Below the pieces are notes generated by a model that searched no databases, had not been told where the DNA came from, and worked only from the letters and a program-made list of their open reading frames with translations. 64,000 bases of DNA from a virus: the IMG/VR virus record IMGVR_UViG_3300018036_000004, positions 1 to 64,000 of that record; one strand, 5' to 3'. Of the stretch, positions 18,463-38,816 are shown piece by piece (the stretch's first letter is position 1; each line of letters begins with the position of its first letter). The position numbers were made by a program, and so were the translations under genes.

Positions 18463-18510
18463 ACTCTCCTAAGTAAAGTAGATTCCTATACATATATGTA
18501 GAAGGAACCC
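18463..18510 (+). promoter_or_regulatory. early-type promoter cassette copy 1
   Basis: ACTCTC-N14-TTCCTATA-N7-GTAG. Confidence 0.7.
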
Positions 18511-18567
18511 TTTATATAGGTCGAACTGTACAAATGATAAATAAAAGAGAGAAGAGTGTAAAAAGTT

Positions 18568-18610
18568 CCTCTCTCTTTTATTTTAGCTTCCTATACATAT
18601 TACTTAGGAA
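18568..18610 (+). promoter_or_regulatory. promoter cassette copy 2 (no downstream hairpin)
   Basis: CCTCTC-N14-TTCCTATA. Confidence 0.65.
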
Positions 18611-18650
18611 CACTAAGTAAACATAAACAACACATAGAACGGATATAACA

Positions 18651-18962
18651 ATGACAGACAATCAAGTATTTACAGCATTCCAAAAGAAGGTCAAAGCAAT
18701 GCGTTTTGGTCATCATGTCGAAATCCCTTTCACAACCAAAGTAGTGGTTCATGTATGGACAGATAAAACAGATGCTAAATCCCGTAAAGAGATCACATTC
18801 ACAATGCTTGCCGGTATGAAAGCTGTAGATGCTGGTAAAATGGCCGATGGTCTTGTGAAAGCTCACTTTGGACTTACCCGTAAGGAAATGGAATACTCTG
18901 CAAACTTCTGTTCACAGATCGACATACTGTGTGCGGTAACTGGAAAGAAACTCAAGGTGTAA
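18651..18962 (+). CDS. hypothetical early protein
   Basis: Directly downstream of the cassette; GGA RBS. Confidence 0.65.
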   Translation: MTDNQVFTAFQKKVKAMRFGHHVEIPFTTKVVVHVWTDKTDAKSRKEITFTMLAGMKAVDAGKMADGLVKAHFGLTRKEMEYSANFCSQIDILCAVTGKKLKV

Positions 18963-18992
18963 TAAATAAAGGGAGAGGACTGTAAAAAAGTT

Positions 18993-19045
18993 CCTCTCCC
19001 TTTTATTTTGGATTCCTATACATATATGTAGAGGGGAAACTACAT
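18993..19045 (+). promoter_or_regulatory. promoter cassette copy 3 (compensatory GTAG..CTAC stem)
   Basis: CCTCTC-N14-TTCCTATA-N7-GTAG-N8-CTAC. Confidence 0.75.
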
Positions 19046-19082
19046 ATCAAAGGTATCCAAACCACTTAACTTAGGAGACATT

Positions 19083-19409
19083 ATGTCAGTAATTACTTTT
19101 GAAGATATGGAATGGTTACAAGAGGAAGCCAATTTGGATGCACAGCATTACGACGATCATGAGGATATGAAAGTATCTGAATGGTATTGGAATCGTTATC
19201 ATATGATTGGTTCTTGTATGAGCCAGTTGTTCTTTATCTATAATGGACATCAAAGTCCTCGTACAAAAGCCTCTGTATCTGTAGAAATCTTAAAAGAATA
19301 TGGATATGAAGCCATTGTAAAGGAATTAGAGGAAACAGAGACTCAAACAGACACAGACTGGGACGCTTTAGCGGACGAATGGTCTGAGTATCAGGCCTCT
19401 AAGGAGTAA
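19083..19409 (+). CDS. hypothetical acidic early protein
   Basis: AGGAG RBS. Confidence 0.65.
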   Translation: MSVITFEDMEWLQEEANLDAQHYDDHEDMKVSEWYWNRYHMIGSCMSQLFFIYNGHQSPRTKASVSVEILKEYGYEAIVKELEETETQTDTDWDALADEWSEYQASKE

Positions 19410-19429
19410 AAGGCCTTGTAGAGTGTTTA

Positions 19430-19482
19430 AAAGCCACTAGATCTAGTAAAAAGGCATGGATCTAGTGGCTTTTGTTGTTTTT
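19430..19482 (+). terminator. intrinsic terminator
   Basis: AAAGCCACTAGATC..GATCTAGTGGCTTT followed by a T-rich tract. Confidence 0.7.
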
Positions 19483-19514
19483 TCTAGAAAAAACACATAT
19501 TTTTATACTTTTTT

Positions 19515-19564
19515 ACTCTCTTTTGTATACTCGTTTCCTATATATATATGTGGAAGGACACCAC
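19515..19564 (+). promoter_or_regulatory. promoter cassette copy 4
   Basis: ACTCTC-N14-TTCCTATA-N7-GTGG-N7-CCAC. Confidence 0.8.
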
Positions 19565-19623
19565 GGTAAAAAATAGATCCGATAAACTCACTTCTAGTAC
19601 CTTTTAAGGTCAAGGAAAATACT

Positions 19624-20256
19624 ATGTCTCATAAAATTGAAAATACTGCTAAACAATTGGAATTCTTGTTAGGAAACAAGGCAACTTTCACAGTAGAAAA
19701 CGAAGCCACTGCTACTCGTATTACTTACAGAGTAGAGTTGGTAGAACAAGCCACTCAGACTTACGATGTAATGGCCATGACAGGAAGTGACAACACTTCT
19801 AAAGGGTCTTATACACTTGTAGGACGTTTGGTTAATGGTTCTTTTGAGTTTCCTAAGACCGCTGAACATTACTTACCAAAGATTGCACAATCTAGTAATC
19901 AATGGGAAGCAGACTTTGCTAAGTCTTTAATGAAGCGTTTGAACTACGGTCCTTTGTCTGATAAACAAGTAGCCCGATTGAACATTATCTGTAGAAAGAA
20001 TGGTTATACAGTACCAAAGAGTTTGGCTACTGACTCAGTACACACAAGAACATTCAAGTGGTTGTTCGCTAAGTTAAACACTACAGGGCTTCCACAAGGT
20101 GTAAACTTCTACCATGAAGGGTTGTGCTGTAGATGTAACCTTCCCTTAACTGTTCCAGCGTCTATTATGACTGGATATGGTCCTAACTGTGCAGATGTGG
20201 TAGGTATCAAGGCTGAGTGGAAACGATTGAACAAGTCTTTTCCACCTAAGGCGTAA
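19624..20256 (+). CDS. DUF6011-like zinc-binding domain protein
   Basis: C-terminal CCRCNLPLTVPASIMTGYGPNC. Confidence 0.75.
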   Translation: MSHKIENTAKQLEFLLGNKATFTVENEATATRITYRVELVEQATQTYDVMAMTGSDNTSKGSYTLVGRLVNGSFEFPKTAEHYLPKIAQSSNQWEADFAKSLMKRLNYGPLSDKQVARLNIICRKNGYTVPKSLATDSVHTRTFKWLFAKLNTTGLPQGVNFYHEGLCCRCNLPLTVPASIMTGYGPNCADVVGIKAEWKRLNKSFPPKA

Positions 20257-20273
20257 TAATCATTAAGAATAGG

Positions 20274-20325
20274 ACTCTCCTTTACAGGGATGAGTCCTAT
20301 ATATTTATGTGGATAGGGTAACCAC
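20274..20325 (+). promoter_or_regulatory. promoter cassette copy 5
   Basis: ACTCTC-N14-GTCCTATA-N7-GTGG-N9-CCAC. Confidence 0.8.
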
Positions 20326-20364
20326 ATTAAATAATCCCTTACTTACTAACTATTGGAGACAACC

Positions 20365-20637
20365 ATGGATACAAACTACACAGGCCCTACTAAAACCTAC
20401 AAAGAGTTATTAGAGACAGCCCAACAGTTATTAGAGACAGCCCAACAGTTAGACTTTGAAGGTCACTTGTATGGTGTGGAATACGCATACAATGTGTATA
20501 CACAAGCCCAACAGTTCTTGGACTACTTATATGAGAATGGGTTTAACACAGATACCACACTTCCTATCTGTAAACACCTAATGATTAACTTAGGTTTTAG
20601 AGATCTGGTTTACGACTTACTACATACATATCCTTAA
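20365..20637 (+). CDS. hypothetical protein
   Basis: GGAG RBS; internal 21-bp tandem duplication (LLETAQQ x2). Confidence 0.6.
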   Translation: MDTNYTGPTKTYKELLETAQQLLETAQQLDFEGHLYGVEYAYNVYTQAQQFLDYLYENGFNTDTTLPICKHLMINLGFRDLVYDLLHTYP

Positions 20638-20654
20638 TACCTTGGGAGAGACGG

Positions 20655-21038
20655 ATGAAGCTTAATTATAAGTACTACATTCAGTTAGACTGTCATTATA
20701 AGACAGATAACTGTCAGACACTATACTTACCTACACCTCATGGTATAAACACAGCTTTAGGTGAATACTATGATGTTCTTACGGACTTTGTAGAACATTT
20801 AAAACAAGATGTTCTACAAGACATCCCTAATACTAAGTACGATAAGGCCCCAGAACTAAACTGTTTAGTTGTAAAAGAGGACCCTTTAGGTACACACTCA
20901 GAGTGTACCTGTATAGCTAACTATCACTGGTATAATGTGGAAGCTTACCCAGCACACCTTATGGATATAATGATTGCTAGTATGAGAGAGATACAACAGA
21001 CAGTAGCTAGAGATCCACTTTTAGCTTTACTATTATAA
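20655..21038 (+). CDS. hypothetical protein
   Basis: GGGAG RBS. Confidence 0.6.
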   Translation: MKLNYKYYIQLDCHYKTDNCQTLYLPTPHGINTALGEYYDVLTDFVEHLKQDVLQDIPNTKYDKAPELNCLVVKEDPLGTHSECTCIANYHWYNVEAYPAHLMDIMIASMREIQQTVARDPLLALLL

Positions 21039-21050
21039 AAGGAGATTAGA

Positions 21051-21482
21051 ATGCCGTACTTACATTCAGAGACACTAAACAATCTATTTCTTAAACGATT
21101 GTACGCTAAAGGAAAACTATCTATCACAGAGATGGTATCTCATTGTATAGGTAAGCGTATTAGACATACTACAGGTATGGATTATATGGATTGGGACGAG
21201 TACCTAAGGGACTACGAACACTTATACGGTTGGATCTTAACAGAACTTGTATACAGTTGGTGGTTTAAGGACGATACCTCTAACTTACCGGGTCAACAGC
21301 TTATTCCAGCTTTTAAATCCAGTGAAGAGGAATCTGTATTCGGTATGTTAATGGATGGTACTATTACTTGGGATTGTACAGAACACCAAAGGGCTGTACT
21401 TGAAGGTATTCATTGGAAGTTCGGTCCAGGTTGGAGAAACAAGTGGAAAGAGATACCTGTGTGTAAAGGAATGGACTTGTAA
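21051..21482 (+). CDS. hypothetical protein
   Basis: AAGGAG RBS. Confidence 0.6.
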   Translation: MPYLHSETLNNLFLKRLYAKGKLSITEMVSHCIGKRIRHTTGMDYMDWDEYLRDYEHLYGWILTELVYSWWFKDDTSNLPGQQLIPAFKSSEEESVFGMLMDGTITWDCTEHQRAVLEGIHWKFGPGWRNKWKEIPVCKGMDL

Positions 21483-21500
21483 AGTTTTTTAAATAAAAAC

Positions 21501-21550
21501 ACTCTCCTTTTAAATCTAGTTTCCTATATATTTATGTGGAAGGAAACCAC
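21501..21550 (+). promoter_or_regulatory. promoter cassette copy 6
   Basis: ACTCTC-N14-TTCCTATA-N7-GTGG-N7-CCAC. Confidence 0.8.
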
Positions 21551-21590
21551 GATAAAAAATAGCCCAACCTACTTACTATTGGAGAACACA

Positions 21591-21806
21591 ATGAAAATCA
21601 ATCAAGAGATAACACGACAAGTTGCAGCTAGACTTTATGAAAGTCGCGTAGGCGAGATTCGGGAATACTTTGGTGACGCTGTAGCCCTCAAGTTTTATAC
21701 CGAAGTAGAGACTCGTACAAAAAACGTAAATAACTACGCTGAAGTAGTAGTAATTATCGGTGAAGTTTTCTTTCAATTCATAAATGAGGAGTTTTCAAAT
21801 GACTAA
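21591..21806 (+). CDS. hypothetical protein
   Basis: GGAG RBS before ATG 21591. Confidence 0.6.
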   Translation: MKINQEITRQVAARLYESRVGEIREYFGDAVALKFYTEVETRTKNVNNYAEVVVIIGEVFFQFINEEFSND

Positions 21807-22086
21807 TGAAATGTTAGAACTGTTAAAGTTCGCAAACCTTACAGGAACAATGGACGAGTGTTTAGCCTTGTTCGAACAAGGCCTGTCCTGTATTGAAGTT
21901 TACAAAGCGTTGGATGCAATGTTGGAACAAGAGGTACAACAAGAAGACCCTATTCAAAAAGGTATTCAACAATGGGTTGAAGCCCAACCCATTAGCAACT
22001 TAAGAACCTTACATGATAGTATGGTTCAAATGTCTAAAGAGTTGGAACAGTTGATTCCATTACCCACACAACCAAAATCTAAATAA
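21799..22086 (+). CDS. hypothetical protein
   Basis: GAGGAG RBS before ATG 21799. Confidence 0.6.
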   Translation: MTNEMLELLKFANLTGTMDECLALFEQGLSCIEVYKALDAMLEQEVQQEDPIQKGIQQWVEAQPISNLRTLHDSMVQMSKELEQLIPLPTQPKSK

Positions 22087-22096
22087 GGAGTTTAAA

Positions 22097-22240
22097 ATGG
22101 TATTCACATATAAAGTAAAAGTTAACGATGTTCCAATGTACTTGGAGAGTATTACCCAAGACCAATATGATAACTGGTTAGACACTATGGCTTCTCTCGG
22201 TATGAAAGTCGAGTTGTTAAAGACTTGGATAGCCCCATAA
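22097..22240 (+). CDS. small hypothetical protein (47 aa), not in ORF track
   Basis: AAGGAG RBS; MVFTYKVKVNDVPMY... Confidence 0.6.
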   Translation: MVFTYKVKVNDVPMYLESITQDQYDNWLDTMASLGMKVELLKTWIAP

Positions 22241-22319
22241 GAATATAAGTAAGTAAGGTTAAGGTCACCTTGTAAAGTGTAAAAAACTTTATGTGGTGGC
22301 CTTTTTTATTGACTTTTTC

Positions 22320-22370
22320 ACTCTCTTTTAGAGGGTCACTTCCTATATATATTTGTGGAGGGAAAACCAC
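22320..22370 (+). promoter_or_regulatory. promoter cassette copy 7
   Basis: ACTCTC-N14-TTCCTATA-N7-GTGG-N8-CCAC. Confidence 0.8.
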
Positions 22371-22414
22371 ATTAAAAAAGACGACCAGTAACTTATTAGT
22401 TCAAGGGAAAAACT

Positions 22415-22771
22415 ATGACTATTACAAAAGCACATTGGAACAGTGGATTTGGTGTACAGACACCTAAACAAGTACCTACAATCGATATGGAGCGCATTAC
22501 ACAATGGCGCGCCAATGTATGGATGTCTATACATGAAGTAATCGAGGTAATGAAAGACACTTGTCCTGAGTACAATGGATTCAATGTTGAAACATTAAAA
22601 CATTACGCTGAAGACTTACAAGACTTAGAGTTTCAAATTGCTCGTGAGGGTTCTGTTACTTTATACGCTCGTGGTAAAGTTAACATGGGACACATTACAG
22701 TGTTACACCTCGGTTTAAGAGTAGACGAGTTAGATAACGACGAAACTGGTTTTAGAGCATGGTGGGATTAA
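22415..22771 (+). CDS. hypothetical protein
   Basis: AAGGG RBS; ends RAWWD. Confidence 0.65.
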   Translation: MTITKAHWNSGFGVQTPKQVPTIDMERITQWRANVWMSIHEVIEVMKDTCPEYNGFNVETLKHYAEDLQDLEFQIAREGSVTLYARGKVNMGHITVLHLGLRVDELDNDETGFRAWWD

Positions 22772-22781
22772 GGAGATTAAA

Positions 22782-23273: not shown

Positions 23274-23283
23274 GGAGAATAAT

Positions 23284-23688
23284 ATGACACTACAAGAATA
23301 CACAACAGAATTGTTTAATGGGGATTACAATGACTTAGTATGGTTATCTAGTATGGCCTTTAAGAGTCAAAGTAATCCTGTATGGAGAAAGGTCTATAAA
23401 AGATCAGCTTTCTTTCAAACCTATAAACATGATCCTAATAAGAATACTTATAGACAAGGCTTACAATGGTATATGACAGTGGCTTGGGTCATGGGTTGGA
23501 AAGATGTGTCTGAACAAGACATTACATCTTTGTTAGACAATACCGGGTTTCTTAGAAGCCCTAACGAAGACTTCTTAGACTTATGTTTCGATAAGGCTAT
23601 GGAGTACGGAGAAAAGAATTTAATGTCTAATGTAGACATAGATGCCCAAGAAGCTGTAGATAAAGACATAGCTTCCGGTCGATTTTAA
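23284..23688 (+). CDS. hypothetical protein
   Basis: AAGGAG RBS. Confidence 0.6.
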   Translation: MTLQEYTTELFNGDYNDLVWLSSMAFKSQSNPVWRKVYKRSAFFQTYKHDPNKNTYRQGLQWYMTVAWVMGWKDVSEQDITSLLDNTGFLRSPNEDFLDLCFDKAMEYGEKNLMSNVDIDAQEAVDKDIASGRF

Positions 23689-23736
23689 CTCTCTTTTAAA
23701 CAAACCCTTCCTATATATTTATGTAGGAAGGGTTTT
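23688..23736 (+). promoter_or_regulatory. promoter cassette copy 8
   Basis: ACTCTC-N14-TTCCTATA-N7-GTAG, inside the inverted repeat AAACCCTTCCTA..TAGGAAGGGTTT. Confidence 0.7.
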
Positions 23737-23758
23737 GTAAATTATCTTTGGAGGATAT

Positions 23759-23878
23759 ATGAAAGAACTTCTTACACGATACTACCTATGGTTAGCAGGA
23801 TTACCTGTAATAGGTGGTGTAATACATATTATAGTTCACACATTTTCACACATAATGGGCATTCATGGATGTCCCTAG
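23759..23878 (+). CDS. small membrane peptide (39 aa), not in ORF track
   Basis: GGAGG RBS; MKELLTRYYLWLAGLPVIGGVIHIIVH... Confidence 0.55.
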   Translation: MKELLTRYYLWLAGLPVIGGVIHIIVHTFSHIMGIHGCP

Positions 23879-23887
23879 GAGATTACA

Positions 23888-24439: not shown

Positions 24440-24442
24440 CAT

Positions 24443-24598: not shown

Positions 24599-24627
24599 TT
24601 AACTACTTAAAAAAAGCTAGTTAAAAC

Positions 24628-24676
24628 AAAACCCTCTAAAGATGTTTTTAAGTCTTTAGAGGGTTTTTTATTTTTT
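24628..24676. terminator. bidirectional terminator between convergent operons
   Basis: AAAACCCTCTAAAGA..TCTTTAGAGGGTTTT with flanking A and T tracts. Confidence 0.75.
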
Positions 24677-24686
24677 AAGAGTTCTG

Positions 24687-24995: not shown

Positions 24996-25008
24996 TGTTT
25001 TACCTTGT

Positions 25009-25992: not shown

Positions 25993-26015
25993 AGTTCTTC
26001 CTTTGTTTTATGTAC

Positions 26016-26486: not shown

Positions 26487-26509
26487 AAAGATATATTCAG
26501 ATAAGTCTT

Positions 26510-26893: not shown

Positions 26894-26895
26894 AC

Positions 26896-27812: not shown

Positions 27813-27837
27813 ATTACCTCCTAATATAAGTATGTTT

Positions 27838-27873
27838 TATAAATGTATAGGAAGTAAAAACCTAAAAGAGAGT
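27838..27873 (-). promoter_or_regulatory. promoter cassette copy 9 (no hairpin)
   Basis: ACTCTC-N14-TTCCTATA on the minus strand. Confidence 0.7.
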
Positions 27874-29623: not shown

Positions 29624-29633
29624 TTCTGCCTCC

Positions 29634-29891
29634 TTATTTAAGATCTTTATCGTTCATGACGACCACATTACCTAAAATGATGTGACCACCTAATTGTTTA
29701 CTGGCCTTAAAGTTTAAAGGCAGTTTCTTTAACCACCCCTCTTCGTTTACAACCATGATACTATCTGGGTCTAAACGAATTACTTCAATGTACCCGCCAA
29801 CAATACCTTGTAAAGTTTCTAGTAAACCTTCTTCTTTTACGGTTATGTCTTCTTGTGTGTTATCTGTTTTTAATACTGTAATGTTTATCAT
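29634..29891 (-). CDS. DUF3846 domain protein
   Basis: LETLQGIVGGYIE...VNEEG.L..LP.N..AS...I.GNVV. Confidence 0.85.
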   Translation of the reverse strand: MINITVLKTDNTQEDITVKEEGLLETLQGIVGGYIEVIRLDPDSIMVVNEEGWLKKLPLNFKASKQLGGHIILGNVVVMNDKDLK

Positions 29892-29907
29892 GTTTACTCC
29901 TATCTAA

Positions 29908-29942
29908 ACATATATATAGAATCTACTCTAGGATGTTAGAGT
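29908..29942 (-). promoter_or_regulatory. promoter cassette copy 10 (degenerate)
   Basis: ACTCTA...ATTCTATATATATG. Confidence 0.45.
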
Positions 29943-30018
29943 GTTTGACGTTAAAAGTTAAATAAAAAGGGTGTGAAGTAAAACACCACACACCCCCCAA
30001 CCAACTTACAAAACAACC

Positions 30019-30132
30019 TTACTTATTTTTGTATTCTTTATAAGCCTCAATCCCCATTGTGATAAGAACCGAAGCAGAGGTGATCAACCAAAGATCACCT
30101 AAACATTGTAAAACGATTTGACTTGTACTCAT
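30019..30132 (-). CDS. small membrane peptide (37 aa), not in ORF track
   Basis: Sole ORF behind cassette copy 11; GGAG RBS; MSTSQIVLQCLGDLWLITSASVLITMGIEAYKEYKNK. Confidence 0.6.
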   Translation of the reverse strand: MSTSQIVLQCLGDLWLITSASVLITMGIEAYKEYKNK

Positions 30133-30173
30133 ATGAACTCCAAAGAAAGTATGTTAACGAAGTATTTTTTAAC

Positions 30174-30224
30174 GTGGTCCTCCTTCCACATAAATATATA
30201 GGAAGGAGGTTTCCAAAAGAGAGT
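30174..30224 (-). promoter_or_regulatory. promoter cassette copy 11
   Basis: ACTCTC-N14-TTCCTATA-N7-GTGG-N8-CCAC. Confidence 0.8.
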
Positions 30225-30574
30225 TATTTATTTAATCTAAATCCAACTCTCGCCGTTGGTGTGCTCAATACCACACCAGGTATTGGACTCTTCAACAACT
30301 CCTGTATACCATACTTGTTTAACTTCTGTATGGTCTGTGTTTCCAAGTATTGTTCAGGCACGAGCCTAGCGTCTTGTAAACGCACTACAGTGTCTTGGAA
30401 GGTCACCACTATGTGTCCACTAGTACCTTGCAAGGTAACACTGTTAGACTCTGTTGTAGCGTGTCCTACAGCGTGTTTACGAAGTTCTTCTTTTACTTCT
30501 TCTAACTCTTTATCCATTTCAGTACGGGCCTTGTACAAAGACAAGGCCTTATCGACTAATTCTTGTGTGTTCAT
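30224..30574 (-). CDS. Gp157/Gam-like coiled-coil protein
   Basis: N-terminal coiled coil plus V...D...VPEQY.......LNK..I..LL...IPGV.L. Confidence 0.5.
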   Translation of the reverse strand: MNTQELVDKALSLYKARTEMDKELEEVKEELRKHAVGHATTESNSVTLQGTSGHIVVTFQDTVVRLQDARLVPEQYLETQTIQKLNKYGIQELLKSPIPGVVLSTPTARVGFRLNK

Positions 30575-31278
30575 TACTCACCTCCCATACAGCCAATGTG
30601 AACATTACCAAAGTTTTCCACATTCACGAACTCAGTGTTCGCTTCGATAACTTTGACACACTTCGAGCAGATAGTAGCAAACCCTACTTTCGTGGTAGTA
30701 CCTGTGTGCTTAGGTGTTTCTTCTACTTCCTTAGCTTCTTCTACTTCTTGTGTTTCTTCTACAACAGGTTCTTTCAACTGATCCATCAAGTCGTCAGCCC
30801 ACATAGCAATCTTAGCGTATGTCGCTTGCTGACAAGACCCAGCCAATGGGCAACTGTTGCAAGTGTTATCTGGATAGTACTTCCCGAAACAACGATTAGA
30901 CATTAACGCAATGTCCTTTAAACTCAAGTACCCATCGTCCAAGTCCTCTTGGAACAACTCATGGTCAGTTTGGTCCAATGTAGGAACCCAACGGTTTGTA
31001 GATTCTACAACAGGTTGTTCTGTAACAGTTTCATTAACAGTTTCATTAACAGTTTCAGTGGTAGTAGTTTCTTCAAAAGGAATAGCTGTTTGAGTACCAG
31101 TAGGAAGTAAGTACCAACCACGCTTAGGTTTAGTACAACCCATTTCAGCTGTAGTAGACTCAAAAGCGGATTGGGAACAAGAAACACCTAACTCGTTGCA
31201 ACGGGCGACGACGGTACCTTTCTTAAAAGGGTTCTCAATAGCGGCGGTTTCAATAATGACAGATTGTATTGTATGCAT
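30574..31278 (-). CDS. hypothetical Cys-rich (zinc-binding) protein
   Basis: CFG..CNSCPL..SC and CSKC..H.GC clusters; AAGGAG RBS. Confidence 0.65.
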   Translation of the reverse strand: MHTIQSVIIETAAIENPFKKGTVVARCNELGVSCSQSAFESTTAEMGCTKPKRGWYLLPTGTQTAIPFEETTTTETVNETVNETVTEQPVVESTNRWVPTLDQTDHELFQEDLDDGYLSLKDIALMSNRCFGKYYPDNTCNSCPLAGSCQQATYAKIAMWADDLMDQLKEPVVEETQEVEEAKEVEETPKHTGTTTKVGFATICSKCVKVIEANTEFVNVENFGNVHIGCMGGE

Positions 31279-31337
31279 TGCATAACTCCTTGGCCTTAAA
31301 AGGCACTAGATGGTTTAAAGGCGGGCTATTTTTTATC

Positions 31338-31389
31338 GTGGTATCCCTTTCCACATTAATATATAGGAATCAAAAAGTAAAAGGAGAGT
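31338..31389 (-). promoter_or_regulatory. promoter cassette copy 12
   Basis: ACTCTC-N14-TTCCTATA-N7-GTGG-N9-CCAC. Confidence 0.8.
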
Positions 31390-31437
31390 GGAAAAGATAA
31401 ACTTTTTTAATCTTTTCCACTCTAGGGTACAACCCTA

Positions 31438-32586
31438 TTAGATTGTACCCAATACAGGATCGATCAGACGCTTAAGTTCGAAACGATTGTCCTCGTCCAA
31501 ACCATCTGTCCAAGACATTAAGGCTTCTTTTAACAACTCTACTGAGGATACAGTGTTATCATCTTTCCAGATGTCTGTAGCATCATTACAGATGTCACAC
31601 AAACCCCGCATCGTAAGTTCACCATAGATGTCACCATCCCCAATAGACTTACGAACACCTTTGGTGATCAAACCCAACTTGTCAAAGAACTCGTCCCCAA
31701 CTTGGATGGCCAACTCAGGATACAATCCTTTTAAGATGTTTCCTTCCTCTGACCAGTTCATGTAGTGTGTCTCAATTTTAGCTCCCAATCGGTCCATGAT
31801 AGAACCATCGATTGGATTAGAACTAGTCATTCGACCCCGGGCATCACCGGACCCAACACTGTTAGCAGTACAAACGAACTGTGGTTTGTTACCAAACTGA
31901 TCTCTAAACAAAGAGACCATGTTACCATGAGGATCAAGGATACGACCAGAGATACTGTCACACAAGATACGAAACCATTCTGCTTGGGCAGGGTCTGCAC
32001 GGTCAACATCTGACAATAAGATCAAAGGAGCACGACGAACACCATCTTTACCCTCTACACCTTGTGTCACAGCATGCCATACAGCACCGTACTGCCAGTA
32101 AGAACCTGTTTCGTCTAATTTCTCTTTGTAGAACCAACCATCCAAGTCTTTACCTGGTGTAAACGACAACGCCATTGCAGGACGACGAGTCAACGCGGAG
32201 AACGCGTGTACAAAGGCGTCTTTCCCAGTACCGGGCATTCCCCAGATAAACGCGTTACGACCATTCTTCACAGCGCGTAAGGCTCTTTTAAAGGAAACTC
32301 CTGCGTCACCCTTAGTTGGGAACTGATACCCTTTCGGCATCGGTAAGCACGTATCACCTTTTACACTTGTATCTACTGGAAGCTCTACTTTACCAATCTT
32401 AACAGACAACGCTGTAGATACAGTAGTACGGGACAACTTTTTGTTAACCATACCGTGAATCTTGTCTGAAATAACAGGGGCGTTGTACTCAGCCACATAA
32501 GCGTCTGGTGTCATATTGTGAACAGTTGAAAGGTGATTGATGATTGCGTGGTGTTCAAAACCACAGATAGCACATTTAATAGTCAT
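31438..32586 (-). CDS. MoxR/CobS-like AAA+ ATPase with N-terminal C2H2 zinc finger
   Basis: CAIC...HL...H; GMPGTGKD; LILLSDVDRA; TANS.GSG..G; D...DR. Confidence 0.85.
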   Translation of the reverse strand: MTIKCAICGFEHHAIINHLSTVHNMTPDAYVAEYNAPVISDKIHGMVNKKLSRTTVSTALSVKIGKVELPVDTSVKGDTCLPMPKGYQFPTKGDAGVSFKRALRAVKNGRNAFIWGMPGTGKDAFVHAFSALTRRPAMALSFTPGKDLDGWFYKEKLDETGSYWQYGAVWHAVTQGVEGKDGVRRAPLILLSDVDRADPAQAEWFRILCDSISGRILDPHGNMVSLFRDQFGNKPQFVCTANSVGSGDARGRMTSSNPIDGSIMDRLGAKIETHYMNWSEEGNILKGLYPELAIQVGDEFFDKLGLITKGVRKSIGDGDIYGELTMRGLCDICNDATDIWKDDNTVSSVELLKEALMSWTDGLDEDNRFELKRLIDPVLGTI

Positions 32587-32647
32587 GGCCGAAACTCCTT
32601 GGACTGAAAAGTCACTAGAATGAAAAGTATTGGGTCTATTTTTTATT

Positions 32648-32698
32648 GTGGTGTCCCTTCCACATATATATATAGGAAACTAGAATTTAAAAGAGAGT
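32648..32698 (-). promoter_or_regulatory. promoter cassette copy 13
   Basis: ACTCTC-N14-TTCCTATA-N7-GTGG-N8-CCAC. Confidence 0.8.
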
Positions 32699-32752
32699 AG
32701 AAAAGAGAAAACTTTTTAATTTTTTATGTAATCTTTTTTGTTTTAGACTACC

Positions 32753-33127
32753 TCAATCGTCTAATGTTCCGAAAGCCTCTATAAGATCTAAAGGTCCACT
32801 GAACTTTTCTCGTATACTACAGATACAATCTGTAAGTACTTTTAATAAAGATGCGTCTAAAGGTATGTCTTTATGTTTTAACCATTCATGGCACTGGAAC
32901 TCTTGGTCTAACCGTTTACCTGTGTTCCATTTCATTATGGCCAAGTAAGGTTCGTAGACATACCCTTTACCACCTTTTAAAGCGTAAGTTTCTATACTTT
33001 CATGATAGTCCTGTAAGGCCGTATTAAACAACCTTACAGTATCTGGACCCTGTTTAGTATACATAAAGTCATAACAGATTGGAGTTTGGTGGGAATCACC
33101 ACCCCTCCAAAGTAAAAGTTCCCACAT
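32753..33127 (-). CDS. hypothetical protein
   Basis: Co-directional ORF. Confidence 0.55.
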   Translation of the reverse strand: MWELLLWRGGDSHQTPICYDFMYTKQGPDTVRLFNTALQDYHESIETYALKGGKGYVYEPYLAIMKWNTGKRLDQEFQCHEWLKHKDIPLDASLLKVLTDCICSIREKFSGPLDLIEAFGTLDD

Positions 33128-33130
33128 AAC

Positions 33131-33544
33131 TCACACCGGAAAGTTCATAACACCAGTATCTAATAGCGTACCCATTAAGTACTTACCAGGACCATGTTTA
33201 TAGGTTGTAAGGATATTTATAGCCCAACCCCCTAACAGGGTACCTTGTAATAACATACTAATAAAAGCGTCTCTGTCTTTATCCCATGGGGATAAACTTA
33301 CACACTGAAAAACATTTAAGGTTTGATTGGGCATATGTTCACAAAGAAATATTTTCTTTGTCAGAGGACAACCGTATACAATGGGACCTTGTTTCCCATA
33401 CCGCTCCTCTCTAACAAACCACAAAGTGTGATTGTTTAACATATAAGCTGCCTCGTCTACAGACCAGTTAGGCACTTTCATTAAAAGAGTAGTAGAGGGC
33501 CTTAGACTAGGCCCCCTACCGGTTACTTTATGTAAAGTATACAT
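33131..33544 (-). CDS. hypothetical protein
   Basis: TAATG coupling at 33544; GGAGG RBS. Confidence 0.55.
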   Translation of the reverse strand: MYTLHKVTGRGPSLRPSTTLLMKVPNWSVDEAAYMLNNHTLWFVREERYGKQGPIVYGCPLTKKIFLCEHMPNQTLNVFQCVSLSPWDKDRDAFISMLLQGTLLGGWAINILTTYKHGPGKYLMGTLLDTGVMNFPV

Positions 33545-34692
33545 TACACCACCTCCACATCTAATGGTTGTATGCCAGTCTTTTCGTCTGGTACACCAGC
33601 CCATGTAACTCGGACTCGTTTACCATTCATAATAGCCTCGTCACCAACTTTAAAGATAGGTGGTTTGTTACTATTAGATTTAGTACCACCTTGTTGTTCA
33701 TCCTCTTCATCGTTATAGGCTTCACCTTGTTCATTGGACCCTTCATCACCATTACCTTCACCAGGATCTGACTTTGTACCATCATCTTGTTGTTCTTGTT
33801 GTTCCTCGTACAATCCTTCTAAGGCTAAAACAATGTCCATAGCCAACCACAAGTGATCCAAGTCGTCTTCTGGCTTAAGTGCGATAACTTTATCCAAGAT
33901 TGGTTTCAACTCTCCGGTAGATACCATTTCAAAAGCTTCTGGGTTGTCCTCATAGTAAGACTGTAAACATTGCATTTGTTGGAAAGACTGATAACCCAAT
34001 CCCAAGTCTCTAAAAGTACAAGTGATAACAGCCAACGCTGTACCCGTAGCGTTTACTTTACGATGTGGATTGGCTTCCTTACCCTCTTTCTCCATACGAA
34101 GAATCAGATCTTGTAAGGCTACAAGTTTCTCTTTAATAGGAGGAAACGCTTGAATACCACATCGTTCGATTCTAATGTCTTCGATAATGTTACCCCATGT
34201 GAGGATCACAGGAATGTATTTCTTCCACTTAGCGGGTTCCATCAAAGGAAGGCGCTTATTTAAGGGTTCCCACACTTCAGTTACAGATAACTGTCTAGTA
34301 CAAGAGTATGCAGTGTGTAATCCTTCATGATAGGCTCCACCTTGTAACTCGTGTGTAATGCGACGGGCTTCCGTCGCGGCCAACATCTCCAAGTTAGAAG
34401 GTGTTTCCGCGATTACAATAGCCTTCTCATAGTCATACACTTGTACTTGGTTTGCTTGTGTAACCAAGTAAGAGATGTCATCAAAAGACAAAGTACCAGT
34501 GAAGTTATACTTCACATATTGTCCAACCACATTCATTAATGAACGAGCGGTCCAGTTATCTTTATTGTAGAACTGGCGTCCTCTAGAAAACACTGGAGGG
34601 GCTTCGATCCCCAAAGGGGATAAGATACCTTGTACGGCCGCTCTATGTGTTGCTGCCCATTGTGAACTCTTGTAACTACTAACTTTTCTCAT
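33544..34692 (-). CDS. CobT-like N-terminal HExxH (metallopeptidase-like) domain protein
   Basis: GGAYHEGLH..YS and NIIED.RIE; C-terminal acidic linker. Confidence 0.75.
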   Translation of the reverse strand: MRKVSSYKSSQWAATHRAAVQGILSPLGIEAPPVFSRGRQFYNKDNWTARSLMNVVGQYVKYNFTGTLSFDDISYLVTQANQVQVYDYEKAIVIAETPSNLEMLAATEARRITHELQGGAYHEGLHTAYSCTRQLSVTEVWEPLNKRLPLMEPAKWKKYIPVILTWGNIIEDIRIERCGIQAFPPIKEKLVALQDLILRMEKEGKEANPHRKVNATGTALAVITCTFRDLGLGYQSFQQMQCLQSYYEDNPEAFEMVSTGELKPILDKVIALKPEDDLDHLWLAMDIVLALEGLYEEQQEQQDDGTKSDPGEGNGDEGSNEQGEAYNDEEDEQQGGTKSNSNKPPIFKVGDEAIMNGKRVRVTWAGVPDEKTGIQPLDVEVV

Positions 34693-34749
34693 TGTATTCT
34701 CCTTGGACTTATCAAGTCACTAGATTTAAAAGACGGACTATTTTTTAAT

Positions 34750-34799
34750 GTGGTTTCCTTCCACAAATATATATAGGAATCCACATCTCGAAAGAGAGT
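34750..34799 (-). promoter_or_regulatory. promoter cassette copy 14
   Basis: ACTCTC-N14-TTCCTATA-N7-GTGG-N7-CCAC. Confidence 0.8.
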
Positions 34800-34815
34800 G
34801 GATTCCAGAAACTTT

Positions 34816-36192
34816 TTATGTATCCAAACGAATCTTTTTAGTACGCTTTGGAAACATAATGTCTTCTAAACAAGACATTAATGCTTTTGGTAAGTCATTA
34901 ATGTTGTCCACAAGAATGTTTCGTTCTCTAAACACTGCTGTCACTCCAGCACACCCGGCGGATTCTAAACCCACACCAATAATAGCAACACCAGCCTCTT
35001 TAGCCAAACGAATCTGTCTAAGTACTACACCAGGATTATTTGGATAACCATCTGTCAACACCAAGATAACCTTGTGGGCCTCTGTACGCTGATTCATACC
35101 CATCATGGCATGATGGATACCGTCAGACATTGGTGTACCACCACGAGCCACTACATTGGTAAATCTGCCAGCACACTGTGCTACTTTTTCCTCATAACCT
35201 TTAAACACATCAATGTTCACAGATCCCTCACGATGGTACAATCTAGATTCATTGTAAGGAACTCTAAACCCACCTTCTCCATCTCGGAAACCAATAACTT
35301 CTACTGGACAATCTAAGGACTCCAACGCTTGTGCTATCGCTAAAGAAGCTGTAGCCTCTCCAGTAATAAGTCTCTTAGTCATTGAACTAGACTCATCCAA
35401 TACAATACTAACAGCCAATGTGGTTTGATCTTTATGTATTGTAGTCTGGTTAGGACGACTAGGCATTTTACCGCCTTTAATCTGTACCATGGATTGTACA
35501 AGTCTTCTGGAAGACAAGTCCCCTCTCTTTGTACCATGTAATGTTTCTGGTCTACGAGCCATCAAGAACTTAGTTCTCAACTTAGACTTCAACGCCCCAC
35601 ACAAAGGTTTAGCGGCATCCTTAAGTTTCTTAGCCTTACGAGGACCACCCGTTTCCACTTTAATGATCTGGTCATGACTAGTAGAGTAAGGACGATAGTG
35701 TTCCTCATCCCAAGAATCTACATTTTGTTGTAAGTCTTCATTGTCCATCAAACTATCTACCAAGTTATCCAACGCTTTTGAAGAGTCCACCATTTGTTCC
35801 TGTAAAGACTGTAACATCTGTTCGAACTCTTCATCTGACATCTGTTGGATTTCGTCTTGGACACTAGAAGAGCCACTTTCGTTACTCTCACTTGTTTCAC
35901 CTTTGTGGGCTTCCTCTTGTGTTTCAGTTTCTTCACCTTGTTCACCAGACTTACCGTCTTGGTCTTCTTCGTCTTCCTGACCACCATTCGAAGATTCTTC
36001 TTGGTCTTCTTCACCTTGCTGACCGGAACCATCCCCGTCTTGGTCTTCATTAGACTCGTCACCTTGGTCGTTCGAAGATCCGTCTTGGTTATCTTGGTCT
36101 TCATTAGACTCATCACCTTTAGTATTATCTTTATCTTTAGATGTGTCTTGTTGATCACGGATAACTTGTAAAAATTGATTTGTTACACGCAT
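34816..36192 (-). CDS. CobT-like vWA (MIDAS) domain protein
   Basis: VSIVLDESSSM, GGTP, VLTDG.P; long N-terminal acidic linker; GGAG RBS before ATG 36192. Confidence 0.88.
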   Translation of the reverse strand: MRVTNQFLQVIRDQQDTSKDKDNTKGDESNEDQDNQDGSSNDQGDESNEDQDGDGSGQQGEEDQEESSNGGQEDEEDQDGKSGEQGEETETQEEAHKGETSESNESGSSSVQDEIQQMSDEEFEQMLQSLQEQMVDSSKALDNLVDSLMDNEDLQQNVDSWDEEHYRPYSTSHDQIIKVETGGPRKAKKLKDAAKPLCGALKSKLRTKFLMARRPETLHGTKRGDLSSRRLVQSMVQIKGGKMPSRPNQTTIHKDQTTLAVSIVLDESSSMTKRLITGEATASLAIAQALESLDCPVEVIGFRDGEGGFRVPYNESRLYHREGSVNIDVFKGYEEKVAQCAGRFTNVVARGGTPMSDGIHHAMMGMNQRTEAHKVILVLTDGYPNNPGVVLRQIRLAKEAGVAIIGVGLESAGCAGVTAVFRERNILVDNINDLPKALMSCLEDIMFPKRTKKIRLDT

Positions 36193-36237
36193 TGTAAACT
36201 CCAATAAAGTAAGTAAGTGTTCGGGCTATTTTTTATT

Positions 36238-36287
36238 GTGGTTTCCTTCCACAAATATATATAGGAATCAAAAAGTAAAAGGAGAGT
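36238..36287 (-). promoter_or_regulatory. promoter cassette copy 15
   Basis: ACTCTC-N14-TTCCTATA-N7-GTGG-N7-CCAC. Confidence 0.8.
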
Positions 36288-36334
36288 ATGAAAGTAAAAC
36301 TTTTTTCATACTCTCCTTACAAGTACCTTTACTG

Positions 36335-37534
36335 TTACATCTTGTATTGTGTAGCAACCGTGACAGTAGGACGAACAGCTTTTATCTCTTTATGGCAATT
36401 AACTACTTGTTCCTTTCTAGGTCGTTCTACCTTATACAAAAGACCATCTCCGGACTTTCTTCTCTTAGTGGCAAACACTTGTTCGCCATCTCGAAGCTTC
36501 TTTCTACCTACCCACAATCTTACCATAGTAGGTCTTCTTGTGTATTGATAACCGTGCTCACCCCCTTTACCTGTAGGTACTTGGTCTACATACAAGGTAC
36601 GAACATTCGACAAGGTCTCTGCGTCGATTTCAATCTGTTGTAGATTAACCTTTACATTGGACTTAGACTTAACTTTTGTTGTACGACCATTAGGTGCTTC
36701 TACAACTTTAAACTTTCGTTTAATAAGCTTAGACTTTACAACAGTCTTAGGATTGTTAACCGCATGTAAGAAGTTAAGAACACCTCTACATCCCGCTCTT
36801 GTAGCTACTATATGGTCTTCGTCACAGTGTGGTACTAACAAGTTTTCGTTTACACCTGTAACACTTCTAATCTGTAACTCACCAGACTCTCTAACGTATC
36901 GAACCAAAGTAATACGATGTGTGTAACTTGTATAAGTATAGTTCTGTAATACTTGTGAGATTACATGATCTACATAAGCACTAGATCTATTAGTGTAATT
37001 TGTCCAGTTAGAACCAAACCGTTTATGTAAGTCTTTACTCTTTATAGGACTCATAAAGAACATCCATACATTGTCTTGTGTTGGACAACATACAAGTGTT
37101 GGCTCTTGTACGTTCACACTAGGTAAGGTACAGCTAAACGTTGTATCTACGGTTTCTTTAAACCGATCGTAATCGTCTATCTCGTCAACGTGTTTACCTA
37201 GGTACTCGTTAATAGCTTCTAACTGTGCAGGATCTTCTTCTGGTACCAGACTAAGATACAAGTCCTCATCCACTACATACATCGTTTGTTTACTGTTATA
37301 CCAGTCTCGAATAACTGGAATAGTATGTAACTCCCACTCTGTAAGACCGCCTTGTCTTTGTAAAGCATCCAAGTAACAAGCGGCATCCGCTTGCCGCTTA
37401 TGTTCACCTCGATACGGCATACGTTTCAAAGCTTGGGATACGTTTTGAATAGCGTCCCACCAACCTTGTCTTTGTTGGTACGTACTTGTTAGCTCTTTAT
37501 CTAACATGTCTAAAACATCTAAAATATGGTTCAT
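36335..37534 (-). CDS. hypothetical protein with basic C-terminus
   Basis: True start probably ATG 37534 (GGAG RBS), behind cassette copy 16. Confidence 0.7.
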   Translation of the reverse strand: MNHILDVLDMLDKELTSTYQQRQGWWDAIQNVSQALKRMPYRGEHKRQADAACYLDALQRQGGLTEWELHTIPVIRDWYNSKQTMYVVDEDLYLSLVPEEDPAQLEAINEYLGKHVDEIDDYDRFKETVDTTFSCTLPSVNVQEPTLVCCPTQDNVWMFFMSPIKSKDLHKRFGSNWTNYTNRSSAYVDHVISQVLQNYTYTSYTHRITLVRYVRESGELQIRSVTGVNENLLVPHCDEDHIVATRAGCRGVLNFLHAVNNPKTVVKSKLIKRKFKVVEAPNGRTTKVKSKSNVKVNLQQIEIDAETLSNVRTLYVDQVPTGKGGEHGYQYTRRPTMVRLWVGRKKLRDGEQVFATKRRKSGDGLLYKVERPRKEQVVNCHKEIKAVRPTVTVATQYKM

Positions 37535-37571
37535 AGTTTTCTCCAAGTAAGTAAGTACCTTATTGTTTAAC

Positions 37572-37622
37572 GTGGTTAGGCGTCCACAAATATGTATAGG
37601 AATCAAAAAGTAAAAGGAGAGT
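37572..37622 (-). promoter_or_regulatory. promoter cassette copy 16 (divergent pair with copy 17)
   Basis: ACTCTC-N14-TTCCTATA-N7-GTGG-N8-CCAC. Confidence 0.8.
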
Positions 37623-37657
37623 GAGTTTTTAAAAAATAAAAAAGAATTCAAAAAGTT

Positions 37658-37708
37658 ACTCTCTTTTAAAGAGTCACTTCCTATATAGTTTTGTGGAAGG
37701 GGAACCAC
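37658..37708 (+). promoter_or_regulatory. promoter cassette copy 17
   Basis: ACTCTC-N14-TTCCTATA-N7-GTGG-N8-CCAC. Confidence 0.8.
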
Positions 37709-37756
37709 TTTAAAAAATACTTCGCTACATAAACCTATACTTACTTGGAGTAAACA

Positions 37757-38086
37757 ATGGACGAGATCCGTTTTACCTGTCCTGTCTCTGGACACCACTA
37801 CTTATACTCACTTGTACGCTTTCGTCGAAAGTATCCTTTAACTGTAGAAGATATGGACTACTACTTTACAGTGATGACTTTTGATGTGTTGAAAGATGGT
37901 CGCTTTGCTATCCGTTCAATGCAAGATTACTGTCGTGAGAATGGTAGTTTGTCTACTGGTGACTTGGTAGTTGTACCAAAGGAAGATACTAACAAGTTCA
38001 AAGACTATGTCATTAAGTGGCACAGTCAGTGGACTAGTGGTAGTGTTGTATCCGACTTGTACGACCTATTACAAAACGAAGGCTAA
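37757..38086 (+). CDS. hypothetical protein
   Basis: GGAG RBS. Confidence 0.65.
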   Translation: MDEIRFTCPVSGHHYLYSLVRFRRKYPLTVEDMDYYFTVMTFDVLKDGRFAIRSMQDYCRENGSLSTGDLVVVPKEDTNKFKDYVIKWHSQWTSGSVVSDLYDLLQNEG

Positions 38087-38162
38087 CCTTTGTGTAGAGG
38101 GTTGGATACTGTAATGGTGTCCAACCTATCTTTGATTTTTTACTTACTTACTTGGAGAAACT

Positions 38163-38765
38163 ATGACAAAGACAAATAGAAAAACAACAAGAGACTGGAT
38201 GAAAACTAGTCGGTATGAATATGAGTGTAATGACTTAACTGTTAACATAATGTTAGCTGCTAACATTATGTGTAAGTCTACTGGTTGGAACAACCCACAT
38301 CGTATGAAAACTTTATGGGACCGTACTAGTAAGAATGGTCGTGGTGTGGAAAACACAAACAGTATAATCACCATACAACGATCCAAGCGTAACGAGTTTT
38401 CCCGAGGACATTGTGAGTCCTTAGTAGGGTACGGTTTTAACCACGGCTACAAAAGAGTTCATGTGTCGGGAGCTAAAACAAACTTAGGACACACATTGGT
38501 TATTTTGTTACATGAACTGTGTCATGCTGACCAAGGTAATCTCCCTACTATTAATGGTAAGACACGACCACACGACTTACCTTTTAATATACAACAGTAC
38601 AAGATGGCTCGTAAGTGGTGGGGTTACACTACTCATCCCGAGGATGCCGGATGGTCCATTGGTAAAGGGTACGCTCCCACTAAACATTTAAGGGTTTGGT
38701 TAGAACAAAAGATAGTAGACCAAGACCCAAAGGTTATGGCTTGGTTAAAAAAGATTGTCTTTTAA
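38163..38765 (+). CDS. SprT-like HExxH metalloprotease domain protein
   Basis: ILLHELCHA followed by PHDLPF. Confidence 0.65.
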   Translation: MTKTNRKTTRDWMKTSRYEYECNDLTVNIMLAANIMCKSTGWNNPHRMKTLWDRTSKNGRGVENTNSIITIQRSKRNEFSRGHCESLVGYGFNHGYKRVHVSGAKTNLGHTLVILLHELCHADQGNLPTINGKTRPHDLPFNIQQYKMARKWWGYTTHPEDAGWSIGKGYAPTKHLRVWLEQKIVDQDPKVMAWLKKIVF

Positions 38766-38816
38766 ACTCTCTTTTGTAATTCCGTTTCCTATATATATTT
38801 GTGGAAGGGATACCAC
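38766..38816 (+). promoter_or_regulatory. promoter cassette copy 18
   Basis: ACTCTC-N14-TTCCTATA-N7-GTGG-N8-CCAC. Confidence 0.8.

Follow-up and report, generated by a model that had tools for sequence, protein, structure and literature searches.

Between positions 18463 and 38793, a 64-kb stretch of viral DNA carries 17 copies and one degenerate copy of a repeat that we take, with good though not full confidence, to be a promoter-plus-leader cassette with an insulating hairpin. The stretch (here, the window) comprises bases 1 to 64000 of IMG/VR record IMGVR_UViG_3300018036_000004, a linear sequence of 102,476 bp with a guanine-plus-cytosine (GC) content of 36.6% and an estimated CheckV completeness of ~58%. 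Each copy combines a box ACTCTC (box 1), a second, -10-like box, and in most cases a hairpin and a standardized leader that ends in a ribosome site. Promoter activity, the start site of the RNA, and the roles of the hairpins are inferred from these features. We also consider it probable, somewhat less firmly, that a factor beyond the plain housekeeping sigma of the host is needed to read the cassettes.

Copies, geometry, and anatomy of the cassette

We searched for ACTCTC-N14-TTCCTATA with up to two mismatches and obtained 17 matches in the window, compared to 0.84 expected; a count of 17 was reached in none of 100 shuffles. The original prediction, made from the letters of the window alone, had listed 18 copies of a promoter-hairpin repeat between 18 and 39 kb. 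All its coordinates are right, given that the "start" of a minus-strand copy is its right-hand coordinate, and its 18th copy, at 29942, is a degenerate form (ACTCTA-N14-ATTCTATA) that recurs, equally degenerate, at the orthologous place in the related contig L154. The sole additional two-box match in the whole record is a two-mismatch junk match at 70636, so the copies are confined to 18463 to 38793, which bears out the earlier statement that none lies outside the island. The hairpin motif GTGG-N7-9-CCAC-nnTAAA occurs 12 times in the record, each time adjoining a pair of boxes.

The 14-nt spacing is set by the search pattern itself, and the sequence of the spacer is free to vary between copies in an alignment of 23 copies. 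In this alignment, CTCTC, most of TTCCTATA, and the next A are invariant, T-T-TGTGG-AAGG and TAAAAAATA are strongly conserved, and conservation extends from about -45 to the ribosome site. A fixed spacing with a variable spacer is as predicted by selection on the spacing, rather than by recent copying, and points to a single machine that reads both boxes. An identical 28-nt core is common to three of the window copies.

At every copy but that at 18463, a start codon lies 26 to 82 nt past the predicted RNA start in the same direction. The copy at 18463 has no gene of its own and stands in tandem, 105 nt ahead of copy 18568. A back-to-back pair, 37622(-)/37658(+), occupies the one divergent intergenic region, and four copies abut or overlap the upstream stop codon. 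The prediction that all copies point into genes, with a back-to-back pair at 37.6 kb, therefore describes the island well. The features of the island are as follows, in window coordinates.

Copy 1, 18463..18567, plus strand: exact boxes; hairpin doubtful; tandem with copy 2; no gene of its own.
Copy 2, 18568..18650, plus strand: CCTCTC variant; a terminator-like hairpin with a T-run has box 1 as its 3' arm; leader hairpin ACTTAG/CTAAGT; heads gene 18651-18962.
Copy 3, 18993..19082, plus strand: CCTCTC variant; terminator-like hairpin upstream; leader stem ATGTAG/CTACAT; heads gene 19083-19409.
Copy 4, 19515..19623, plus strand: full form with a second, pre-ribosome-site hairpin; heads a conserved gene for 210 amino acids (aa), 19624-20256.
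Copy 5, 20274..20364, plus strand: GTCCTATA variant; heads genes 20365-21482.
Copy 6, 21501..21590, plus strand: full form.
Copy 7, 22320..22414, plus strand: full form; separate hairpin and T-run upstream; box 1 pairs with the spacer.
Copy 8, 23688..23758, plus strand: boxes only; the leader is short and has no hairpin; the copy's first A doubles as the final base of the upstream TAA stop.
Terminator-like hairpin, 24628..24667, bidirectional, 16 bp: the plus- and minus-strand cassette-driven blocks converge here.
Copy 9, 27813..27873, minus strand: boxes only; 26-nt leader; abuts the upstream stop codon.
Degenerate copy, 29892..29942, minus strand: kept in L154; box 1 pairs with the spacer.
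Copy 10, 30133..30224, minus strand: full form; heads a conserved 37-aa open reading frame; abuts the upstream stop codon.
Copy 11, 31279..31389, minus strand: full form; 14-bp upstream hairpin ending in ACTCT; pre-ribosome-site hairpin; heads a 234-aa gene.
Copy 12, 32587..32698, minus strand: full form with pre-ribosome-site hairpin; heads a MoxR-like AAA gene, 31438-32586.
Copy 13, 34693..34799, minus strand: full form with pre-ribosome-site hairpin; heads a conserved 382-aa gene, 33544-34692.
Copy 14, 36193..36287, minus strand: full form; a 15-bp hairpin has box 1 as its 3' arm and is followed by a T-run; heads a CobT/VWA-like gene, 34816-36192.
Copy 15, 37535..37622, minus strand: leftward half of the divergent pair; hairpin loop without GGA.
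Copy 16, 37658..37756, plus strand: rightward half of the divergent pair; its box 1 is an inverted repeat of that of copy 15.
Copy 17, 38766..38862, plus strand: full form; begins directly after the upstream stop codon.

Upstream of the boxes lies an A-rich tract, usually AAAAAGTT, which is often the loop of a stem-loop. In silico folding places ACTCTC in the 3' arm of a terminator-like stem, followed by the T-run CTTTTAnTTTTT, in about seven window copies (18568, 18993, 30224, 31389, 36287, and 37622/37658), and ACTCTC pairs with a GAGAGT-like stretch of the spacer in 20274, 22320, 29942, and 34799. Folding also yields a hairpin 3' of the -10-like box in 14 copies. Taking TATA(T/C)A as the -10-like hexamer, the gap to ACTCTC is 17 to 18 bp, TTCC occupies the extended -10 place, and GTGG, the predicted start, follows ~6 to 8 nt past the hexamer.

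The hairpin at the predicted 5' end of the RNA has a 4- to 6-bp stem and a 7- to 9-nt loop, AAGGnnA. It forms part of the minimum free energy (MFE) fold in 11 of 16 leaders, and 91.8% of its stem cells are paired, compared to 21 to 57% when the partner is slid. GGA is present in the loop of 10 of the 12 GTGG hairpins, and the loop sequence AAGG is conserved at a level of at least 70 to 90%. The original prediction had made this hairpin part of the consensus, which is correct for 12 copies; the others have a different stem (GTAG/CTAC in 18993, ACTTAG/CTAAGT in 18568), a doubtful one (18463), or none (23688, 27873, and 29942). After the hairpin, the leader continues with TAAAAAATAG. Next comes a G-poor spacer of the CTTACTTAC type, except in 19515, 31389, 32698, and 34799, where a second hairpin replaces it and stands directly before CAAGGAG. 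The leader ends in a GGAG ribosome site and the start codon; in some MFE folds, a leader segment is paired with this ribosome site.

We propose that each cassette would insulate and drive a unit of one to six genes, controlling both transcription and translation. Where ACTCTC and the T-run form the 3' arm and tail of a stem-loop, this upstream stem-loop would terminate or attenuate read-through from the preceding gene. ACTCTC and TTCCTATA(T/C)AT, 14 nt apart, would act as two recognition boxes with the geometry, though not the sequence, of a sigma-70 promoter. The reader may be the bacterial core RNA polymerase with a specificity factor that is phage-encoded, injected, or a phage-modified host sigma. 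RNA would start at or just before GTGG and open with a GUGG..CCAC stem-loop whose loop, AAGGA, resembles a ribosome site. This hairpin might protect the 5' end and/or dock 30S subunits, or a GGA-binding regulator. Finally, UAAAAAAUAG and the G-poor CUUACUUAC-type spacer would keep the leader open up to the strong GGAG ribosome site, with a covarying hairpin directly before CAAGGAG probably taking the place of the spacer in four island genes. We rank the candidate roles of the 5' hairpin as (i) 5'-end protection and/or 30S docking, (ii) binding of a GGA-specific regulator, and (iii) loading of a NusG paralogue.

The cassettes head two converging blocks of genes. A plus-strand block at 18.4 to 24.4 kb and a minus-strand block running from 37.6 down to 24.7 kb meet at the hairpin at 24628-24667, and a rightward block starts at the divergent pair at 37.6 kb. 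Most island genes match no family; those that are recognizable encode a MoxR-like AAA protein, a VWA/CobT-like protein, an exonuclease, and a DNA-binding protein. Outside the island are genes for RecA/UvsX, RNR, a Dda-like helicase, PhoH, a clamp loader, TerL, and a 1716-aa protein whose C-terminal part matches tail sheath. The gene content of the island suggests non-structural functions, and the "early" timing given to it in the original prediction is unproven.

Relatives and the clade-wide layout

A megablast search with 20 kb against a phage collection gave no match. When IMG/VR was scanned, a 14-base two-box pattern gave only single chance matches and longer cassette patterns gave 0 matches. 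Rfam reported no family at any cassette and only spurious matches, at the 24.6-kb terminator. A metagenome scan with the cassette pattern, in turn, found four contigs. The only long close relative is L154 (6.6 kb), which is colinear with window 29630-35870 at 78 to 83% nucleotide identity and has the same genes at 46 to 95% protein identity. Five cassettes with intact boxes lie at orthologous sites in this contig. One of them, L154_3512, is a mosaic: its spacer is identical to that of L154_1418 and nearly identical to that of the window copy at 34799, unlike that of its positional orthologue at 32698, while its hairpin part is nearest to the copy at 38766 and its tail to the copy at 31389. Cassettes therefore exchange sequence. 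In addition, L152 and L153 contain two full cassettes before genes without a homologue in this (incomplete) record; these cassettes adjoin a paralogue of the leucine-rich-repeat genes at 10 to 14 kb. The module shuffling that had been predicted is only hinted at, by these traces of sequence exchange; as to gene gain or loss at cassettes, L154 is colinear over its 6.6 kb.

More distant relatives were found in IMG/VR by a TerL search, at 64 to 74% identity and with GC contents of 54 to 64%, except for one fragment of 41% GC. CheckV completeness was 9 to 36% for the six TerL-relative records checked (38 to 159 kb), indicating that these relatives are huge phages. TerL also matched LR745208.1, a 485-kb GenBank sequence of an uncultured phage (54%); the best cultured match was a Tunturiibacter phage (29%), and no T4-like phage was among the matches listed. 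In these relatives, the genes orthologous to the MoxR-like, 382-aa, and VWA genes are headed by multi-copy cassettes of each phage's own, as follows.

L140, 9 copies: TATTAATC-N16-GATAAAGGGGTGAGAG; eight exact-pattern copies within 143.3 to 152.5 kb of the 159-kb record, on one strand.
L124, 9 copies: TTTCAC-N15-TATAAAAGGATGTGAG.
L125, 5 copies: TTGGAGC-N-GCTCCCGTACCTAC.
L122, 7 copies: CGTTAAAAC-N8-GCTTCCGTAAGTA.
L123, 8 to 9 copies: GGGGGGTTCAAC-N-CTCCGTATAG.
L120, 7 to 10 copies: GGGGGTTCCC-N-CCCGTAGWGAG.

A (C/T)CC(G)TA core at the -10-like box is common to the phage studied here, L125, L122, L123, and L120. A purine-rich GTGrrGG-like start is present in all, mostly followed by a hairpin, and one L123 copy reads GTGGAAGGACACC, as does the window copy at 19515. 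In the distant relatives, the cassette has either an upstream box or a G/C hairpin, and then a box of the (C/T)CC(G)TA type and a GTGrrGG start; a hairpin comes next, with another one before the ribosome site. Because this layout is shared across relatives, we regard it as a trait of the clade and the upstream box as phage-specific. No clear cassette was seen in the short stretch of L139 that was examined. In L120 and L123, a G-run/C-run hairpin (GGGGGG-loop-CCCCCC) lies just 5' of the CCGTA box, in the style of the classic promoter-early stem-loop (PeSL) elements of T4-type phages.

The hairpin before the ribosome site is also found beyond the island and beyond this phage.

Pre-ribosome-site hairpin: window 19601-19611, 31290-31302, 32599-32611, and 34704-34716; also ahead of the gene at record 73527-74369.

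It has a 4- to 6-bp stem and a 3- to 6-nt loop, often with AGTG just 5' of it, and lies directly before CAAGGAG. A hairpin directly before CAAnGGAG occurs in leaders of seven phages ranging from 36 to 63% GC. Compensatory changes were detected at four of five pairs in 26 leaders that had been picked for hairpin potential; we therefore checked the frequency of the hairpin separately, and one of at least 5 bp ending at that C was present at 44 of 118 candidate sites (37%), compared to 6% in shuffled and offset controls. All four island genes with this hairpin have homologues in the relatives.

Of ~40 island genes, only the MoxR-like/382-aa/VWA trio and the 234-aa and 210-aa genes recur in syntenic loci of the relatives. 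Apart from the trio (31438-36192, minus strand), no part of the island is widely conserved among huge phages; the trio recurs at 33 to 49% identity in 12 loci. The CobT-like protein alone as query gave no close viral locus.

Outside the island, a second promoter-like motif, (A/T)GTATATAA(G/A), lies 22 to 56 nt before 10 gene starts.

Second motif: window 61880-61915 and 62375-62412, minus strand; near 1120, 4028, 42065, 68428, 72098, 76040, and 96948 of the record.

Its copies at 61.9 and 62.4 kb (TTGTATATAAGGATGTG) are nearly the same as the multi-copy cassette of L124 (TTGTATAAAAGGATGTG). Since the L124 cassette heads MoxR/VWA genes, orthologues in different phages seem to be under promoters of different classes. 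Near TerL, the high-GC relatives do not conserve this second motif, TATA(A/T)AA. A long hairpin with a T-run, ending 3 to 10 nt before the start codon, precedes several genes beyond the island (1100-1157, 1790-1836, and 61850-61915); in one case, the loop of such a terminator-like leader hairpin contains the GTATATAA motif.

The reading factor and competing explanations

Several observations weigh against promoter cassettes read by a special factor. The phage RNA polymerase or sigma that the original prediction had implied, as an alternative to an unusual host sigma, did not turn up: no Sigma70_r2, Rpb2_6, or Rpb1_2 was found in the record, in the relatives' fragments, or in the 485-kb LR745208.1, and the controls responded. 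This absence of a polymerase or complete sigma concerns a record that CheckV rates as only ~58% complete, and an odd sigma of the host might still be the reader. The GTGG/CCAC stem measures just 4 to 6 bp, and whole leaders fold at -5 to -14 kcal/mol. Covariation in this stem had been predicted, and the GTAG/CTAC stem of copy 18993 agrees; overall it is modest, with one pair changing from GC to AU in three copies and a covariation score that 29 of 500 shuffles reach, because the stem is nearly invariant. The stem is broken in the relatives' copies L154_3512 and L152_2176, and several copies have no hairpin at all, which indicates that the hairpin is not essential to the promoter. In addition, box 1 is involved in hairpins as well, so that selection for termination, and not for recognition, may account for some of its conservation.

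Two proteins encoded outside the window are candidates for a role in reading the cassettes. A 179-aa NusG-fold protein (record 88359-88898) has a KOW motif and matches phrog_6386, "transcription antiterminator." Its AlphaFold2 model (predicted local distance difference test score 79.5) has an NGN+KOW fold, for which Foldseek returned 28 NusG/RfaH/Spt5 matches in PDB at an E value of at most 1e-3. The neighboring gene encodes a 201-aa protein with Sigma70_r4 (48 bits) and a second helix-turn-helix but without region 2. The two genes adjoin after the clamp loader (record 88359-89496, plus strand), and they are adjacent in the same order in five of five TerL-clade relatives tested; the sigma-region-4 protein also occurs in LR745208.1, G009, and G011. 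PF00940, the family searched for a single-subunit RNA polymerase, was silent in the record and five relatives, and in the control genomes as well. Both recognition helices of the sigma-region-4 protein are invariant across phages that differ in box 1; therefore, we disfavor this protein as the reader of box 1. It could, speculatively, read something common to the clade.

On this basis one might speculate, at low confidence, that a clade of uncultured huge phages (~300 to 485 kb, GC 36 to 65%) has its own promoter grammar for non-structural genes, in which a conserved (C/T)CC(G)TAnnnA box is combined with a phage-specific upstream box and with GTGrrGG at the start. The core polymerase of the host would be re-targeted by conserved phage proteins without a normal sigma region 2, namely the tandem sigma-region-4 protein and the adjacent NusG paralogue, and the leader hairpin would be the loading or regulatory site. 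If true, this would amount to a novel mode of host transcription takeover.

The strongest competitor, which we nonetheless consider unlikely, is that the cassettes are ordinary strong promoters read by an unusual housekeeping sigma of the host and that differences between phages track their hosts. The differing upstream boxes in relatives of 36 to 65% GC would follow, as would the failure to find a phage sigma region 2 or polymerase; the L123 cassette, TTCAAC-N17-TATAGG, is near the standard form; and 7 of the 17 copies contain TATATTTG, which agrees with the -7 element of Bacteroidota, TAnnTTTG. However, the most invariant bases (ACTCTC and TTCC) fall outside any known housekeeping consensus, and the -10-like hexamer ends in A, not T, in this phage, L120, L122, and L125. 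The original prediction had noted the lack of a TTGACA-like -35, and this is confirmed, box 1 being ACTCTC: 33 sigma-70-type consensus sites were detected in the island compared to 57 expected, a depletion, and none of them is a cassette.

A Bacteroidota-type promoter is disfavored by three features, namely the spacing to a TTTG, which would be 17 and not 19 to 21, the identity of the invariant bases, and heavy Shine-Dalgarno use. The Shine-Dalgarno core is present in 78% of genes, compared to a background of 8.5%, which argues against a Bacteroidota host despite the partial fit of TATATTTG. A genome-collection scan for the cassette returned seven single chance-level matches in unrelated Bacillota/Bacteroidia contigs, without hairpins, and no many-copy genome, giving no clue to the host. 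In several of these seven matches, ACTCTCCTTT resembles a ribosome site in reverse complement.

Less probable again is that the hairpin is chiefly a translational or decay operator, in which a repressor that binds GGA (CsrA-like or RegA/RegB-like) would recognize the AAGGA loop and the GGAG site as its two targets and shut off the whole class together. The conserved loop sequence and the GGA in 10 of 12 loops are as such a repressor would require, a second GGA lies in the ribosome site 35 to 60 nt downstream, and the pairing between a leader segment and the ribosome site in some MFE folds also fits. Yet family scans of the record's proteins gave no CsrA, RegA, or RegB homologue among the top 25 families listed per batch, and a purine-rich 5' end may equally be a passive 5' stabilizer.

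We give slightly less credence still to the idea that the leader, through the hairpin and TAAAAAATAG or the GTGrrGG start, loads the phage NusG paralogue to produce a termination-resistant polymerase, as in RfaH/ops and LoaP. The NusG-fold protein is conserved in the clade, the position of the leader element is one at which factors of this kind load, the record has no other occurrences of the element, and terminator-like hairpins lie between units. Specialized NusG paralogues, however, usually serve long operons, and the units here are short, each with its own promoter, so that a need for antitermination is not obvious; the element bears no sequence likeness to ops, it is absent from five copies, and the link is purely positional.

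We regard a role of the repeats as DNA elements as very improbable, be it as sites at which a mobile cassette system recombines or as hairpin promoters for an N4-type virion single-subunit polymerase. The mosaic L154_3512 spacer, the core shared by three window copies, and the same cassette before unrelated genes in L152 would fit. However, strict co-orientation with genes and a position just 5' of ribosome sites are in keeping with expression signals, the repeats have no associated recombinase, and exchange is an expected by-product of any 100-bp repeat; N4-type promoters have a 3-nt loop 5' of the start and depend on a giant polymerase, and no such polymerase turned up in this incomplete record.

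Comparison with known promoter systems

Read as a promoter-plus-leader unit, the cassette gives a precise definition of the expression signals of one gene class in a huge phage of a kind known almost only from metagenomes. Across the clade, a fixed TCC(G)TA box, a purine-rich start, and a pre-ribosome-site hairpin are combined with an upstream box that differs between phages. Should the cassette be read by a conserved phage factor, this would be a new takeover mechanism; if not, it would point to an unusual type of host promoter. In either case, the motif marks transcription units, aids the annotation of related contigs, and can link fragments of one phage population. The main interest lies in a non-standard promoter grammar across an uncultured huge-phage clade, together with adjacent candidate genes for transcription factors.

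Four known systems share parts of this layout. One parallel is with specialized factors such as RfaH, acting at ops, and LoaP: the phage encodes a paralogue of NusG, and many of its units have a conserved element in the 5' leader. Unlike in those systems, there is no ops-like sequence (GGCGGTAGnnTG) and the units are short. The T7 class III promoter phi10 is a single 23-bp block read by a single-subunit polymerase, and its transcript starts with a short stem-loop. The leader described here would similarly open with a 5'-terminal stem-loop, after which come a spacer that is unstructured and enhancer-like and a strong ribosome site, whereas the promoter consists of two boxes 14 nt apart, and the search with PF00940 gave no single-subunit polymerase, the control genomes being silent too.

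In T4 middle promoters, a MotA box, TGCTT, lies at -30, ~12 bp upstream of the sigma-70 -10 element, and sigma is appropriated by AsiA/MotA. The cassettes resemble them in that a phage-specific box replaces the -35 element at a fixed distance from a TA-rich -10-like box and in that non-structural genes are served. They differ in that box 1 is ACTCTC and not TGCTT, and the -10-like box has an invariant TTCC prefix and ends in A. No TGCTT box is present in the cassette alignment, and no MotA/AsiA annotation was among the PHROG matches listed, the coverage of which is incomplete.

The closest parallel is with the PeSL cassettes of T4-type phages, in which promoters that are strong and sigma-70-like, plus terminator stem-loops, make up conserved units of ~100 bp that mediate gene shuffling (PMC2839356; PMC4122927). 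The stem-loops of PeSLs fall into five positional classes relative to the promoter (PMC2839356), and PmSL variants of T4 middle promoters have been described in phage nt-1 (PMC4122927). The original prediction had drawn this comparison, and it is apt: the repeats studied here are intergenic modules of ~100 bp, often abutting the upstream stop, that contain a promoter, an AT-rich upstream tract, and a stem-loop that overlaps the -35 position, lies in the spacer, or follows the -10 box. Like PeSLs, they cluster in a block of small genes, most of them unknown; each stands at the head of a small unit, and the copies show signs of having exchanged sequence. Unlike PeSLs, their promoter is neither TTGACA-N17-TATAAT nor a near variant of it, the phage is not T4-type, and the cassette continues into a standardized leader with a GGA-loop hairpin, an A-box, and a spacer. 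Given that layout and clustering match, that promoter consensus and lineage do not, and that shuffling is only hinted at, we conclude that the cassette works like a PeSL but is not a member of that group. Cassettes of the PeSL type are known in T4-type phages; the non-sigma-70 promoter type that the present ones carry appears to be new.

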